Positions 26,847 to 32,000 of a stretch of DNA of 32,000 nucleotides are shown here, one piece after another; within the stretch, counting starts at the first letter, position 1, and each line of letters starts with the position of its first letter. Made by a program: the position numbers and the translations under genes. The notes below the pieces were generated by a model. The model worked only from the letters and a program-made list of their open reading frames with translations. It searched no databases and was not told the origin of the DNA. The stretch is from Candidatus Lokiarchaeum ossiferum (GTDB lineage Archaea; Asgardarchaeota; Lokiarchaeia; Sigyniarchaeales; Promethearchaeaceae): the NCBI GenBank assembly GCA_025839675.1, contig CP104013.1:1200001-1232000 (forward strand). The letters are read 5' to 3'.

Positions 26847-27533
26847 TTAATCATCTTTGAGATGATTATTAAGTAAAGTATGGTTTTTTTCAACAAAATT
26901 TTCTCCGAAGCCTTTAATACTTTTGATTTTATCTGGGGAATTTAACAATGATTCAATAATTTCTATTGGATTATCAAAAGATTTTAACAATTTTTGAGCT
27001 TTCTTTGAGCCACAAAGGGTTAATCCTTCAATAAAAAATTGTTGGGCATCAGCTAAAAGTTTTTTTCGAGATTTTTGCCTTCCTACGTCGGGTATATGGT
27101 CTTTCACTTGTTCTCTAAAGGCGATACGAGTTAAAAATAAAAAAACATCATCCCAATTTCGAGCAGCGATTATTCCCGGAAATGAAAGATCACTAAGCGA
27201 TAAAAAATCTATGGAGAGAGATTGGAGAAAAAGACGTTTTTTTTCTTTGATTCGATTAAAACCGTTAAAAATAATAACGCCATTAGAATGAATTTCCAAA
27301 AATTCGTAAAGAGCTTCTTTAATCCTTTGCATTTTCTTCTCATTATCAATATCTTTTGATCCTAACAGAAAAACCCATCCCAAAGGAGGAATAAAAACCA
27401 AATTTGCCCCTAAATTCTCTATTCTTGCCTTTATCACATAGGACTCTAATAAATTTTGGTGAGTTTCAATTTCTTTTTGAAAGGATGTATCAAATGAAAT
27501 TAAATAAATTTTCTCGGTAATTGAGGATCCCAT
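26847..27533 (-). CDS. ERCC4-like domain + helix-hairpin-helix protein lacking the nuclease catalytic motif
   Basis: Collinear with the catalytic ERCC4 protein at 31260 onward: LISFDTS vs IIMDERE, ANLVFIPPLGWVFLLGSK vs GDYILSERIAVERK, VIIFNGFN vs IIILESPN, PGIIAARNWDDVFLFLTRIAFREQ vs IPLIPTKDEKETANFLLKLAKSEQ, FFIEGLTLCGSKKAQKLL vs YFLQGLVDIGKSTAEKYI. GDY and ERK are absent. Confidence 0.5.
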   Translation of the reverse strand: MGSSITEKIYLISFDTSFQKEIETHQNLLESYVIKARIENLGANLVFIPPLGWVFLLGSKDIDNEKKMQRIKEALYEFLEIHSNGVIIFNGFNRIKEKKRLFLQSLSIDFLSLSDLSFPGIIAARNWDDVFLFLTRIAFREQVKDHIPDVGRQKSRKKLLADAQQFFIEGLTLCGSKKAQKLLKSFDNPIEIIESLLNSPDKIKSIKGFGENFVEKNHTLLNNHLKDD

Positions 27534-27586
27534 GACTTTAATAAACTAATGAAAAGTCTTTTATTTATTTACCCCAAATCTAGCTC

Positions 27587-27955
27587 ATGAATCCAATATC
27601 TCATTTTGAAATTAATGCAGATGATCCCATTCGAGCGAAATTATTCTATGAAAGTGTGTTTCAATGGAAAATTACTAAATGGGAAGGGCAGATAGAATAC
27701 TGGAACATTCAAACTAGCGAAATGGAAGGAAAATCTATTGATGGAGGTCTTCAAAAGCGTGAAGATCCCTTAGCAACAATACAAAATTTCATCACAGTTC
27801 CATCAATTGATGAATATGTCCAAAAGGTAAAAGAAAATGGAGGTCAGATAACCACACCAAAAATAACAATTCCGAGTGTCGGTTATTGCATATATTTCAA
27901 AGATACAGAGGGAAATACGTCAGGAATGATGGAGTGGGATAAAAATGCAGATTAA
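27587..27955 (+). CDS. VOC (glyoxalase/bleomycin-resistance) family protein
   Basis: 122 aa. ISHFEINADDPIRAKLFYESVFQWKI ... VPSIDEYVQKVKENGGQI ... GYCIYFKDTEGNTSGMME is the typical single-module VOC pattern. Confidence 0.75.
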   Translation: MNPISHFEINADDPIRAKLFYESVFQWKITKWEGQIEYWNIQTSEMEGKSIDGGLQKREDPLATIQNFITVPSIDEYVQKVKENGGQITTPKITIPSVGYCIYFKDTEGNTSGMMEWDKNAD

Positions 27956-28055
27956 ATCTCTGAAAAGAGTTTGTTGAGGTGAGAACACTTATGTAATTAT
28001 GATCTCACCCAAATATATATATTGCCAAATGAAGTAGATAATAAACATTAAAGTC

Positions 28056-28066
28056 TTTTTATATTT
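28056..28066 (+). promoter_or_regulatory. TATA-box-like TTTTTATATTT upstream of the large repeat-protein gene
   Basis: Lies 33-43 nt upstream of the GTG at 28099. A second A/T alternating tract is at 28011-28023. Confidence 0.25.
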
Positions 28067-28098
28067 GGGAGGAGATTTAAATTAGAAGAAACCAGCGG

Positions 28099-31000
28099 GT
28101 GGGAGTCAAAGGATTAGTTTTGGCATTATTTTTGTTCACAAATTTTTGTTTTTCAAGTTCAATTGAATATAATATGGAATCGGAGCTTGTAGAAAAAGAT
28201 CAATTTAAAAATGGGAATGAACGTCCAACTACGGGTAATGAAGTATTAATTAAAGATCCGATGGAAATAGATCCAACAATCTACGATCAAGATCCAATCG
28301 AAACTTGGATATATATCGAAGGAGAATTGGGAAATAATGACTGGTATATTTCAGAAGTGACTATTCAATTAGAATGTTCTCGTTTAGAAGCCGATGTTTT
28401 TTTTTCTGTGGATAATCAAGGATGGGAATATTATGATGGTATGCCGATAATAATTGAAGAAGATGGAGAACACATCTTTTCTTATTATTCAGAAGACATG
28501 TCAACAGGCGAGATTGAAACAACTAATGAAGAAATCATAAAAATTGCAACATCAATCCCTGTAACCAGTTTTGAAATTATGGGAGAGTTAAATACTGATG
28601 CGACAGCATATGTTTCTGAAGTTTTTTTGACACTAGAGGTTTTAGAATTCTTTACGACAGAATTTGACATATTTTACATTATAAACAGCGGAGATCCCCA
28701 ATTGTATCAAGGATCTATCATATTAGACGAAATTGGAATATATTTTATTGAATATTATGTAAGTATTGAAGCCAGAGAATATGATGCAGAATTTATCCCT
28801 GAATTTGAGATAACTATCGAGGAATATAAAATATTTTGCGATCTTATTGGGACAATTGGAGATGATAATTGGTACATATCAGACATTGAAATCACCATTG
28901 ATAATTTTCAGATGGAGCCAATTTATTATAGTCTAAACGGTGATCCGGAACAGGAGTATACCAGCCCCATGATCATTTCTGAAGATGGAATGTATGATCT
29001 ATATTTCTATTCTTCCATAAATGGACAGTTAGTTGAAGGATCTCAAATTTTTAGCATTGATCAAACATCCCCCACAACGGATATCGAAATTATGGGAATT
29101 ATGGGACAAAATGAATGGTACCTTTCAGAAGTAGAAATTTCATTTGATAGTATTGATCTTAGTTCAGGGGTCAAAGAGACATATTATAGCTATGACCAGA
29201 TGAATTGGAACGTGTATTCAACAATCATCTCAACCACAATCGAAGGTTCGAACACAATTTACTTTTATTCAACCGATAATGCTGGAAATGTAGGAGAAAC
29301 ATTGTCGCAAATTTTCTATATAGAAACTTCAGAAATTGAGGTAAATGTAGAATTCGATGGTTTAATGGGAGATAACAGCTGGTTTAAATCTGATGTAGAA
29401 ATATCTATTACAACAAATCAAATTGCATCTGAAATCGCAGCTTTCACTTACAGTACAAATGGAATAGAATTTATTCCATACACAGGAACATTTTACTATA
29501 CAGAAGAAGGAGTAAACTTTATCTATTTCAATATATCAAGTAATGCAGGACATAATTCATTTGGTTATAGAGAAATTTCTATTGATAAAACAAATCCTTT
29601 GACAACACTCAATATTTCTGGAATAATGGGAGAAAATGACTGGTATATAGCAAATATTGATCTCGATTTCATCTCTACTGATCTTGAATCAACAGTTGCA
29701 TCGATCTATTATAGTTTTGATAATATAACTTGGTCAATTTTCGATGGAACTCCAATTAGCATTGATATAGATGGAATTTATTCATTATTTTACTACTCAA
29801 AAGATTTAGCGGGAAATATTGAACAATACAAATCAGAAATAATCAAAATTGATACAAAAGCTCCCGAAATTTATATTGAATATTCAGGTACAATGGGAGC
29901 CAATGGTTGGTATACCAGCGATGTTGATATATTAATTTCACTAAATAATAGTACGTCGGGAATTTATGAAATAAGCTGTACTTTGAACGGAAATATAATT
30001 TCTCCTTTTATCAACATGATAGAAGTAACTTCTGAAGGAGAAAATATCTTAAATATAGAAGTAACAAGTTTTAGTGGGGCAAAAATCACATATCATGACA
30101 TAATCAAAATAGATAAGACAAGTCCTACAACCGAAATTTATTTTGATGGAGATGTAGGGTCGAATGGTTGGTATTTATCAGAAGGAAATGTTTCTCTAAC
30201 AGCATCAGACAATTTGTTAAATCAATTTCAAATATGGTACAAGATTGATGCGAATGATTGGATGATTTATGAATTTCCTTTGGAATTTTTAAGCGACGGC
30301 ATATATAACATATCCTTCTATTCAACGGATTTTGCTGGAAATAAAGAAAGTGTTAAAGAATTTAAACTTGCACTCGAATTAACTAAACCAGAAGTATTGA
30401 TAAATATTTCGGGTATTGAAGGGAATAATGGTTGGTATAATTCTATAGTTCAAGTAATTCCGTTTGTAACCAATTCTATTTCTGGTCACACACAGTTTAC
30501 TTACTCAATAAATAATGAATCATTTCTTCCATATTTTGTTCCATTAAATATTTCTGAAGAAGGATATAACGATATTAAATTTGAATTGTTGAGCATTGCT
30601 GGAAATATTGTTTTTCAAAATATTTCTCTTTTAATAGATTATTCTAATCCCACAATTCTGTGCAATATTAGTGGAGTTTTAGATGAATTTGATCAATATA
30701 AATCACCAGTAACTGTAAATTTAACTGGAATCGACAAATATTCAGGCATAAATAACATATCTTATAGTTTAGATGGAAATATTTGGAAATTATATACTAG
30801 TCCTTTAGAGTTTTCTGAAGATGATTTCTACATGCTATATTTCGTTGCACTAGACAACGCAGGAAATTTTGGAACTATAAACACTTGCAGTTTTATTATA
30901 AACAAAACCATTGATGAGCAACCATTGAGACACTGTTATGGTTGGACATTTATGTTTAAAGAACATCATTGGTGGTTTGGATTAGGAGAATTGTGCATCT

Positions 31001-31197
31001 ATGAGACTCGAATTGATCTAACATGTGATAGCCAAATATTTAGCTGGGAAATATATGAATTTTCAGTCAATGGGCGTACAGAAATATATTTTGCTATGGA
31101 AAAACAAGAAAAATTAGCAATAATAATTCATTCTGGCAAATGGAATACAATTTGCATGGGATTAGGGTGTAACGTATTCTTTTTGTGTATTGATTAG
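28099..31197 (+). CDS. large secreted acidic protein with ten tandem ~87-aa beta-sandwich-like repeats and a Cys/Trp-rich C-terminal domain
   Basis: Signal-peptide-like N-terminus (GVKGLVLALFLFTNFCFSSS). Repeat motif G-x-x-G-x-N-x-WY-x-S-x-V ... YS-x-D/N ... W ... EG/DG ... YYS-x-D-x-AGN. The start is uncertain: GTG at 28099, or an in-frame ATT at 28081 that is preceded by GGAGGAG and would add a basic RRNQR n-region. Confidence 0.8.
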   Translation: MGVKGLVLALFLFTNFCFSSSIEYNMESELVEKDQFKNGNERPTTGNEVLIKDPMEIDPTIYDQDPIETWIYIEGELGNNDWYISEVTIQLECSRLEADVFFSVDNQGWEYYDGMPIIIEEDGEHIFSYYSEDMSTGEIETTNEEIIKIATSIPVTSFEIMGELNTDATAYVSEVFLTLEVLEFFTTEFDIFYIINSGDPQLYQGSIILDEIGIYFIEYYVSIEAREYDAEFIPEFEITIEEYKIFCDLIGTIGDDNWYISDIEITIDNFQMEPIYYSLNGDPEQEYTSPMIISEDGMYDLYFYSSINGQLVEGSQIFSIDQTSPTTDIEIMGIMGQNEWYLSEVEISFDSIDLSSGVKETYYSYDQMNWNVYSTIISTTIEGSNTIYFYSTDNAGNVGETLSQIFYIETSEIEVNVEFDGLMGDNSWFKSDVEISITTNQIASEIAAFTYSTNGIEFIPYTGTFYYTEEGVNFIYFNISSNAGHNSFGYREISIDKTNPLTTLNISGIMGENDWYIANIDLDFISTDLESTVASIYYSFDNITWSIFDGTPISIDIDGIYSLFYYSKDLAGNIEQYKSEIIKIDTKAPEIYIEYSGTMGANGWYTSDVDILISLNNSTSGIYEISCTLNGNIISPFINMIEVTSEGENILNIEVTSFSGAKITYHDIIKIDKTSPTTEIYFDGDVGSNGWYLSEGNVSLTASDNLLNQFQIWYKIDANDWMIYEFPLEFLSDGIYNISFYSTDFAGNKESVKEFKLALELTKPEVLINISGIEGNNGWYNSIVQVIPFVTNSISGHTQFTYSINNESFLPYFVPLNISEEGYNDIKFELLSIAGNIVFQNISLLIDYSNPTILCNISGVLDEFDQYKSPVTVNLTGIDKYSGINNISYSLDGNIWKLYTSPLEFSEDDFYMLYFVALDNAGNFGTINTCSFIINKTIDEQPLRHCYGWTFMFKEHHWWFGLGELCIYETRIDLTCDSQIFSWEIYEFSVNGRTEIYFAMEKQEKLAIIIHSGKWNTICMGLGCNVFFLCID
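28300..30900 (+). repeat. ten tandem coding repeats, period ~261 nt (divergent at DNA level)
   Basis: The G..G.N.WY motif recurs at about 28321, 28576, 28847, 29088, 29356, 29618, 29884, 30144, 30410 and 30671. Confidence 0.8.
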
Positions 31198-31259
31198 AAT
31201 AAAACTTCAAATCTTTTTTTTACACTATTTTTTATGATAAGAATTTTTAATGATAGTAA

Positions 31260-32000
31260 ATGGAGATTATTCCCTCAAAAGCTCCCGACGCGCAACCAAC
31301 AATCATAATGGATGAACGAGAAAGAGGGAAAATTAAGGAGGAAATGATCAAACTTCCTTGTTCATTACAGATTAAAACTTTAGAAATGGGAGATTATATC
31401 CTTTCGGAAAGAATTGCAGTAGAACGAAAACGGGGAGATGATTTTGTGAGTTCTATCTTTGATAGTCGTCTTTTCATCCAATTAGAAAAATTAAAACAGA
31501 GTTTTCTTAAACCAATAATAATCCTGGAATCGCCCAATCGACTATTTGAACGGAAATTTATTAATAAAAACTCCATAACAGGAGCAATGATCTACATGAT
31601 CTATAGAATGGACATTCCATTAATTCCAACGAAAGATGAAAAAGAAACAGCCAATTTTTTGCTTAAACTGGCAAAATCGGAACAAAAACTTGGACATTGG
31701 CCAGATCTTTCAAAAATTATGACAAACCAATTTAAAAATGCTAAGATAACACGAGAAGATCAAATTTATTTCTTACAAGGGTTAGTCGATATTGGAAAAT
31801 CTACCGCGGAAAAATACATTAACATTTTCGGAACCCCATATTTCGCCCTACAAGCATTGTTGCAAACAGATATCATCTTTACAAAAAATGGAAATCCAAA
31901 AGGAATCTCTGGTCTAATGGCCAGTATCAAGGGCAGTGGACCTAAAATGGTCAGTCGAAATCATCGAATGTTGAAAATGTCCTATAAAATGACAAAGAAA
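31260..32000 (+). CDS. ERCC4-type nuclease (short XPF/Mus81-family) with (HhH)2, 3-prime end outside window
   Basis: My translation from the ATG at 31260 is open to the window end (247 codons): IIMDERERG ... EMGDYILSERIAVERKRGDDF (GDY-ERK-D catalytic signature) ... GLVDIGKSTAEKYINIFGTP ... IKGSGPKM (HhH). Confidence 0.85.
   Translation, partial: MEIIPSKAPDAQPTIIMDERERGKIKEEMIKLPCSLQIKTLEMGDYILSERIAVERKRGDDFVSSIFDSRLFIQLEKLKQSFLKPIIILESPNRLFERKFINKNSITGAMIYMIYRMDIPLIPTKDEKETANFLLKLAKSEQKLGHWPDLSKIMTNQFKNAKITREDQIYFLQGLVDIGKSTAEKYINIFGTPYFALQALLQTDIIFTKNGNPKGISGLMASIKGSGPKMVSRNHRMLKMSYKMTKK

Follow-up and report, generated by a model that had tools for sequence, protein, structure and literature searches.

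A non-catalytic ERCC4 paralogue beside a short XPF-type nuclease in Lokiarchaeum: a candidate subunit of a heterodimeric endonuclease

Why would a genome keep a gene for an ERCC4-type nuclease and, close to it, a paralogue that has lost the active site? The question is raised by a 32,000-nt stretch of the Asgard archaeon Candidatus Lokiarchaeum ossiferum (contig CP104013.1, positions 1,200,001 to 1,232,000), hereafter the window, in which the gene for a 228-aa ERCC4-like protein lies near the gene for a catalytic short ERCC4 nuclease. Archaea have been described as having one XPF homologue, which is homodimeric, and no ERCC1, and the active/inactive heterodimers XPF-ERCC1, Mus81-Eme1 and FANCM-FAAP24 are held to have arisen by duplication in the eukaryotic lineage (PMC2034474). 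The first-pass annotation of the window, made from the letters alone, had noted the homodimeric state of the archaeal enzymes, in agreement with this literature, and had proposed the 228-aa protein as a possible ERCC1- or Eme1-like partner of the nearby nuclease. We find that the protein is a conserved, non-catalytic relative of XPF that may well act together with a catalytic paralogue, while its resemblance to the eukaryotic subunits is most likely an analogy.

An ERCC4-fold protein that lacks the catalytic residues

Orthologues of the 228-aa protein are found in Ca. Lokiarchaeum ossiferum CP163304.1 (99% identity), which agrees with the earlier suspicion of an Asgard genome, and in related metagenome assemblies (75% and 63% identity). 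Searches with the single 228-aa sequence returned a weak HHH_5 match only from Pfam, a sub-threshold match to the NCBIfam "Hef nuclease" model (E 2.5e-8), no match to NCBIfam Arch_Xpf_endonucase and nothing significant from phmmer against the PDB. A hidden Markov model search with the alignment of the genus sequences against 1.84 billion cluster representatives gathered 76 relatives, about 40 of which are proteins of 210-260 aa without the GDY/ERK motif, the remainder being catalytic ERCC4 proteins. The motif-less proteins are referred to below as the I family, and 38 representatives of them make up the alignment A3 on which the following profile and structure results are based.

Compared by hhalign with a profile of 28 catalytic relatives, the I-family profile aligned over 226 columns, covering residues 3-228, with a probability of 100% and an E of 5.8e-43. 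The protein is thus collinear, through the nuclease fold and the helix-hairpin-helix (HhH) region, with the nuclease encoded from 31260, as had been claimed from the sequence; a direct BLASTP comparison of the two proteins gave an E of 7e-11 at 26% identity over residues 86-226. The same I-family profile matched Aeropyrum pernix XPF (E 1.2e-6, residues 20-226), the Hef nuclease domain (E 4.7e-5) and the Hef HhH domain 1x2i (E 4.3e-4), and Pfam HHH_5 was matched in 17 of the 38 members.

The AlphaFold2 (AF2) monomer model calculated from A3 reached a predicted local distance difference test score (pLDDT) of 91.3, compared with 57 from a 4-sequence genus alignment. Its topology is β1-α1-β2-β3-β4-α2-β5-α3-β6-α4, followed by a lower-confidence linker and the five helices of an (HhH)2 domain. 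In a Foldseek search of the PDB, every one of the 24 matches with E<=1e-3 was a chain of the XPF/Mus81 family (XPF, ERCC1, FANCM, FAAP24, Mus81, Eme1, Zip2, Spo16 or Hef), the top match being A. pernix XPF (E 4e-8), and at the domain level the nuclease-fold domain was matched to that of Hef with a TM-score of 0.68-0.71 and a root-mean-square deviation of 3.7-3.9 Å. Profile searches and the structural model therefore bear out the family assignment made in the first-pass annotation, and confirm the product of the 228-codon open reading frame (ORF) as a full-length ERCC4-fold plus (HhH)2 protein, a member of the XPF/MUS81 superfamily.

Two profile alignments agree on what occupies the place of the active site. 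NLV stands at the GDY position, where the metal-binding Asp has become Leu, and FLL at the ERK triad (Table 1). The loss of these residues had been noticed before, and the improved alignment did not bring back an intact active site; the replacement had been read as ANL...GSK, however, which is one to three residues out of register. The final Asp of the signature had also been counted as lost, which is true of the GDY Asp but not of the last Asp of ERKX3D, retained as D61. Both D15 and D61 of the 228-aa protein align with Asp residues of the ERCC4 signature, namely the first and the last.

The loss extends over the family. Across the 38 representatives, the GDY-Asp column contains Ile, Leu or Val in 28, Glu in one and Asp in none. 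The ERK-Glu column is Leu or Phe in 32 and the ERK-Lys column is Leu, Ile or Phe in 35, with neither an acidic residue nor a Lys in either column, and the ERK Arg is kept in three; the triad as such is missing in every member. The columns of D15 and D61 have Asp in 13 and 16 of the 38, respectively, and both residues are invariant within the genus Lokiarchaeum. What is invariant in the I family is R140, D145, P148 and R152, located where the last nuclease-domain helix ends and in the linker, and G170, G175 and L182 in the first HhH, while K178 is conserved in at least 90% of the members.

Measured against the 75% orthologue, the ratio of non-synonymous to synonymous substitution rates (dN/dS) is 0.19 for the I gene and 0.08 for the neighbouring nuclease. 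Together with the family-wide conservation and the confident fold, the value of 0.19 rules out a pseudogene or decaying duplicate; the I gene is under purifying selection and encodes a conserved, functional, non-catalytic protein. A defence-system or mobile-element origin was also considered and rejected, with no PADLOC matches and no relatives on viral contigs.

All named I-family members are from Promethearchaeota (Lokiarchaeum, Promethearchaeum MK-D1 and Harpocratesius), and the others lie on unlabelled metagenome contigs. Two such contigs carry small GTPase genes of the Arf/Ras/Roc type, one near the dead paralogue (L015:1903-2448) and one near a catalytic ERCC4 gene of the clade called C4 below (L019:14154-15038), which is consistent with an Asgard origin of these contigs. 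Among the distant members, cluster records gave one "Promethearchaeota archaeon" label. One I-family member, P0178 (in the cluster of P0043), is on a 1.4-kb contig that NCBI labels "Patescibacteria group bacterium" and that is probably a mis-binned Asgard contig.

Linkage to a catalytic nuclease and reciprocal loss of motifs

The nuclease gene of the window, which we call C1, runs off its end, and the full length of 254 aa was read in the CP163304.1 locus of L. ossiferum (L001). The earlier description of its product as an XPF-type nuclease is well founded: it matches Pfam PF02732 (E 1.3e-26), the Hef nuclease 1j22 (E 2.4e-22) and A. pernix XPF (E 2e-19), and its catalytic residues D18, E21, G44-D45-Y46, E55-R56-K57 and D61 are all intact. 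The catalytic alignment of 28 sequences shows no variation at D45, E55, R56, K57 and D61; the numbering used here counts Met1, which that alignment omits, so that it prints the same residues one lower (D44/E54/R55/K56/D60).

A search with the catalytic profile revealed a second catalytic short ERCC4 protein in L. ossiferum (P0156, 249 aa) and likewise in MK-D1 (P0103/P0105). The gene of P0156 (L022:5988-10750, in the 2.63 Mb region of CP163304.1) is divergent from that of a 751-aa helicase, which is Hel308/Ski2-like and not Hef-like, and in L. ossiferum no I-type gene was found up to 10 kb away from P0156. At the same locus, a 484-aa DDE-transposase-like gene is inserted between P0156 and the helicase, and a Rad51/RadA-like gene of 262 aa lies 5 kb away.

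One genome per GTDB species was scanned with a 12-sequence query subset, which yielded eight I loci (L004-L011), belonging to Promethearchaeum syntrophicum MK-D1, three other Promethearchaeum species, Ca. Harpocratesius repetitus, a Promethearchaeota metagenome-assembled genome and two archaeal ones. Since the query relied on one peptide pattern, this taxonomic survey is biased to Loki-like members. In 8/8 of these loci a catalytic ERCC4 gene lies immediately upstream of I on the opposite strand, and the same divergent arrangement is present in four of the five informative metagenome contigs. Where both starts could be set, I and the nuclease are separated by 33-145 bp, four of the scan loci having a spacer of 55 bp. 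The distance of 3.7 kb given in the first-pass annotation is correct for the window (27533 to 31260), and the pair is tighter elsewhere, with a C1-type nuclease immediately divergent from I in 12 other loci (L004-L011, L023, L025, L026 and L027). The wide gap is a derived state, because two genes have been inserted between I and C1 (Table 1).

Distant I members, which are 23-27% identical and have no other synteny in common, again have a catalytic ERCC4 gene nearby, at 1.4 kb (L012), 4.2 kb (L018) and 0.7 kb (L030). The nuclease is divergent from I at L012, where RadA, a Ski2/Hel308-type helicase and a HIRAN protein are encoded close by; at L018 it adjoins an XPG/FEN1-type gene, and at L030 it is convergent. 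The L012 region as a whole (L012:939-9087, GCA_963986595.1) is a putative repair island. It begins with RadA, two unknown genes, an 873-aa superfamily 2 (SF2) helicase (DEAD, ResIII, Helicase_C) and the catalytic ERCC4 gene; next come a membrane or secreted protein of 433 aa, the dead paralogue and the HIRAN-domain protein.

In a neighbour-joining (NJ) tree of 139 sequences, rooted on Hef and tested with 100 bootstraps, the I family (~40 sequence clusters) is monophyletic with 99% support, and C1, the adjacent nucleases, forms one clade with C2, the second paralogues, also with 99%. The C2 clade includes the nucleases found near distant I members as well. A recent tandem duplication of the neighbouring nuclease was rejected, as I is neither nested in nor sister to C1 (NJ only, moderate support). 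An insertion of ~14 residues between the two HhH motifs (consensus YT-K/R-x-G-x-PKGI-x-G; in C1, for example, at 31866-31915) is present in all catalytic clades and in the distant dead members; A. pernix XPF does not have it, and the dead paralogues of the Lokiarchaeum type have lost it by deletion. This shared insertion ties I and the catalytic clades to one Asgard-specific ERCC4 subfamily.

The linker behaves in the opposite way to the active site. Of 41 I-family sequences, all 41 have R140, D145, P148 and R152. R152 and K156 are also found in all nucleases of the clades C3 (27/27) and C4 (20/20), and in A. pernix XPF they can be discerned as HKKPR. In the two clades found near I, on the other hand, R152 occurs in 0/30 (C1) and 0/16 (C2) sequences, so that the motif R..D..P...R..K has been lost in C1/C2 and is kept invariantly in I. 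The nucleases have lost the linker motif that I keeps and I has lost the active site that the nucleases keep, which is the pattern expected of duplication-degeneration-complementation, the same subfunctionalisation model by which XPF-ERCC1 has been explained (PMC2034474). As judged from these alignments, the reciprocal loss fits an obligate heterodimer.

Possible roles of the inactive paralogue

XPF-family proteins dimerise via both of their domains, and of the two active sites in the archaeal XPF homodimer only one is used in each cleavage (PMC2034474). Because of these two properties, we infer by analogy that I would be the non-catalytic subunit of a heterodimeric structure-specific endonuclease formed with a catalytic ERCC4 paralogue (C1, possibly also the C2 protein P0156), a reading to which we assign a probability of about 0.55. 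In this enzyme, I and its partner would pair through the nuclease-fold domains and through the (HhH)2 domains, as do the A. pernix XPF homodimer and XPF-ERCC1. The partner nuclease would provide the single active site and cut a flap or fork strand, while I would provide one of the two duplex-binding (HhH)2 modules, together with the conserved basic linker no longer present in the partner. More speculatively, the former active-site cleft of I, now hydrophobic (F55-L56-L57), might serve as a protein-docking surface like that of ERCC1. In ERCC1, a hydrophobic groove at the ERK site docks XPA.

Several observations weigh against the heterodimer. No catalytic ERCC4 gene is present in the 1.3-8 kb flanks of four loci (L014, L015, L024 and L029). 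Two catalytic paralogues are encoded in L. ossiferum and two in MK-D1, which makes the partner of I ambiguous. The I family groups with the catalytic clade C4 (74% bootstrap) and not with its neighbour, being sister to C1+C2 in 22%. Finally, the pair is located inside a long syntenic block, conserved in genomes that are all Promethearchaeaceae in the NCBI taxonomy, with the order Band_7, PyrF, Rce1-like, C1 nuclease / I, ModE-like winged helix-turn-helix, actin-family, prenyltransferase-like and FolD; for that reason, inherited gene order may account for some of the linkage.

Alternatively, I might be a protein that stands alone, binding forks, flaps or junctions as a homodimer or with some other protein partner and leaving them uncut, as do FANCM-FAAP24 and Zip2-Spo16, in which case the proximity of the nuclease would reflect shared regulation or synteny. 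Besides the Promethearchaeaceae block and the four loci without a nuclease gene in the flanks examined, such a role is favoured by the (HhH)2 hairpins and the basic linker being the most conserved parts of I and by structural matches to FANCM/FAAP24 and Zip2/Spo16 that are about as good as those to ERCC1/Eme1. We nevertheless regard it as possible but unlikely, given that a catalytic ERCC4 gene appears nearby again in three non-syntenic contexts, that the linker motif was lost specifically in the neighbouring nuclease clades and that all known non-catalytic ERCC4 proteins are subunits of heterodimers with an ERCC4-family partner (PMC2034474, PMC3763369). Within the heterodimer itself, the partner of I in L. 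ossiferum might mainly be the C2-type P0156, or C1 and C2 might form alternative heterodimers. The immediate neighbour of I is C1-type in 12 loci and P0156 has no I-type gene within 10 kb, which makes this version rather doubtful in our view, even though the nucleases near distant I members (L012 and L018) are C2-like, with 48-52% identity to P0156/P0105 versus 38-46% to C1, the linker motif is lost in C2 as completely as in C1, and both belong to a single clade with 99% bootstrap.

The same linkage evidence would also be compatible with negative regulation, where I would sequester C1 in dead-end heterodimers and lower the nuclease activity, since an inactive subunit could act in a dominant-negative manner. 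An active/inactive dimer is expected to be competent, however, as the archaeal homodimer cuts with one active site (PMC2034474), and the loss in the neighbouring nucleases of a motif that I keeps argues for dependence over antagonism; we consider regulation of this kind improbable. Hardly any credence is given to I being a cryptic nuclease that still cleaves DNA via a re-built active site, made for example of D15, D61 and other residues. Although these two align with signature Asp positions and do not vary within the genus, Asp is found in their columns in only 13/38 and 16/38 of the family, the former GDY-Asp and ERK columns are devoid of the required residues apart from the Arg in 3/38, no alternative acidic column is conserved, and the invariant residues are all in the linker and (HhH)2 region.

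How the proposed heterodimer relates to known proteins can be judged from both sequence and structure. The closest relatives of I in both respects are the short archaeal XPF proteins (Aeropyrum pernix, Sulfolobus) and the Hef nuclease domain. The short XPF proteins have the same domain order and a similar length, and the linker of I resembles their REQ...(R/K)KP(K/R); they are active homodimers, whereas I lacks the GDXnERKX3D residues and coexists with two active paralogues in one genome. ERCC1 is similar to I in combining an ERCC4-like fold with (HhH)2, in having lost the catalytic residues while the canonical DNA-binding HhH hairpins are kept in both, and in having L139-F140-L141 at the ERK position (PMC2034474), where I has F55-L56-L57; the I model matched the ERCC1 chain 9qec_B in Foldseek with an E of 1.1e-5. 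Eme1/Mms4, FAAP24 and Spo16 (with the ERCC4-like Zip2) are likewise inactive ERCC4-(HhH)2 subunits paired with another ERCC4-family protein, and the corresponding Foldseek matches are 2ziv_B (E 2.7e-5), 4bxo_B (E 2.7e-5) and 6bzf_F (E 5.2e-5) for Eme1, FAAP24 and Spo16. These three differ from I in being eukaryote-specific, each with its own pathway, and in having no sequence affinity to it. The proposed complex differs from XPF-ERCC1 in that the candidate partner has 254 aa and lacks the helicase-like domain that XPF carries.

The specific kinship to ERCC1 or Eme1 that the first-pass annotation had suggested did not survive these comparisons. Pfam Rad10 (PF03834) matched none of the 38 I-family members at E<=0.1, the I-family profile retrieved no ERCC1 chain from the PDB at E<=1, and hhalign of A3 with human ERCC1 residues 99-297 (checked against PDB 6sxa_G) gave a probability of 8.7%, so homology to ERCC1 by sequence was rejected. 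Neither the I-family nor the catalytic profile matched chains of Eme1, Eme2 or FAAP24; as ERCC1, Eme1 and FAAP24 are undetectable even from catalytic archaeal profiles, the failure to detect them from I says little. The I family, unlike ERCC1, branches among the Asgard short ERCC4 nucleases, and for this reason the resemblance to the eukaryotic pairs is most likely, on sequence evidence, an analogy that arose from an independent duplication within Asgard archaea. The other view is that the Asgard pair is a surviving descendant of the duplication behind XPF-ERCC1 or Mus81-Eme1, so that such heterodimers would predate eukaryogenesis and the sequence link would have been erased. It strikes us as quite improbable, since the named I members are in Promethearchaeota, none being from Heimdallarchaeia, and the family has its place among the short nucleases specific to Asgard archaea.

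Across 8.3 million papers and preprints, we found no description of an inactive ERCC4 paralogue or of a heterodimeric XPF in Asgard or other archaea, and recent Asgard reviews name only "XPF". If the proposal is correct, this would be the first prokaryotic active/inactive ERCC4 heterodimer, an architecture so far described only in eukaryotes. Both P. syntrophicum MK-D1 and L. ossiferum, the two Asgard archaea in culture, carry the gene pair. The putative heterodimer would contradict the generalisation of a single homodimeric archaeal XPF. With several short ERCC4 paralogues in Lokiarchaeia (I together with C1 and C2 in a single genome, and types C3 and C4 in related lineages), the Asgard repertoire is more complex than "one XPF". 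The pair would provide a natural experiment on the path from homodimers to obligate heterodimers through subfunctionalisation, and its two proteins, of 228 and 254 aa, are small and amenable to recombinant work.

Features of the window and neighbouring genes

Table 1. Positions, strands and supporting evidence of the features in the window.
Feature	Position	Strand	Evidence or remark
I-family gene, non-catalytic ERCC4-(HhH)2 paralogue, 228 aa	26847..27533	-	ORF, orthologues, AF2 model, hhalign
Degenerate ERCC4 nuclease-fold domain, residues 9-142	27108..27509	-	six strands and four helices in AF2 model
N44-L45-V46 at GDY position	27396..27404	-	two profile alignments
F55-L56-L57 at ERK position	27363..27371	-	two profile alignments
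Linker, residues 143-159; with the end of α4 carries R140-x-Q142-x-x-D145-x-x-P148-x-x-x-R152	27057..27107	-	invariant columns in A3
(HhH)2 domain, residues 160-225; hairpins C174-G175-S-K177-K178-A179 and G208-F209-G210	26859..27056	-	profile and model
Catalytic short ERCC4-(HhH)2 nuclease C1, candidate partner; 247/254 codons in window	31260..32000	+	PF02732, Hef 1j22, A. pernix XPF
C1 active-site segment, from G44-D45-Y46 (31389-31397) to E55-R56-K57 (31422-31430)	31389..31430	+	direct reading
ModE-N-terminal-like winged-helix protein, 128 aa	26394..26780	-	TIGR00637 E 2e-14; PDB 2ijl E 6.8e-7; ModE E ~1e-6
Glyoxalase-family gene, inserted in genus Lokiarchaeum; outside the system	27587..27955	+	PF00903 E 4e-7; between the pair in L001-L003, absent from L004-L011
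1032-aa repeat protein, inserted between the pair only in L. ossiferum; outside the system	28099..31197	+	absent from L002/L003
Actin-family protein, 499 aa	24803-26302	-	PF00022 E 2.9e-66
SF2 helicase, 982 aa	15644-18592	-	L001/L002 counterpart with DEAD, Helicase_C and DUF5814 Pfam matches

The gene next downstream of I is always that of the ModE-like protein, in the same position and orientation in L004-L011 and ~25-75 bp from I in most Promethearchaeaceae loci. Pfam gave no match to this 128-aa protein. The two genes may form an operon and be co-transcribed, and the ModE-like protein is an uncertain member of the system.

The 1032-aa protein between I and C1 consists of many repeats of ~90 aa with a recurring G..G.NGWY.S motif. 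Its counterpart in CP163304.1 (L001) has 1007 aa and, like it, a faint Big_13 match, so that the two assemblies differ in the number of repeats or in the start that was called. Further along the block, the actin-family protein has a zinc-ribbon segment (residues ~353-378) and ends in a long acidic extension; all Promethearchaeaceae loci keep it in this place, with a length of 515-557 aa. The SF2 helicase at the end of the same block is conserved with 65-67% identity in L006 and L010.

In the distant I branch, the I gene is the last of a co-directional set (L018:3200-6209, L030:1201-4168, L029:6160-8765 and L012:6700-8762). A protein of 319-469 aa, homologous in 4/4, precedes I at these loci, and a multi-pass membrane protein of 289-294 aa follows in three of the four; the L018 and L029 copies of the latter have a HELxH-like motif and match each other in BLASTP.

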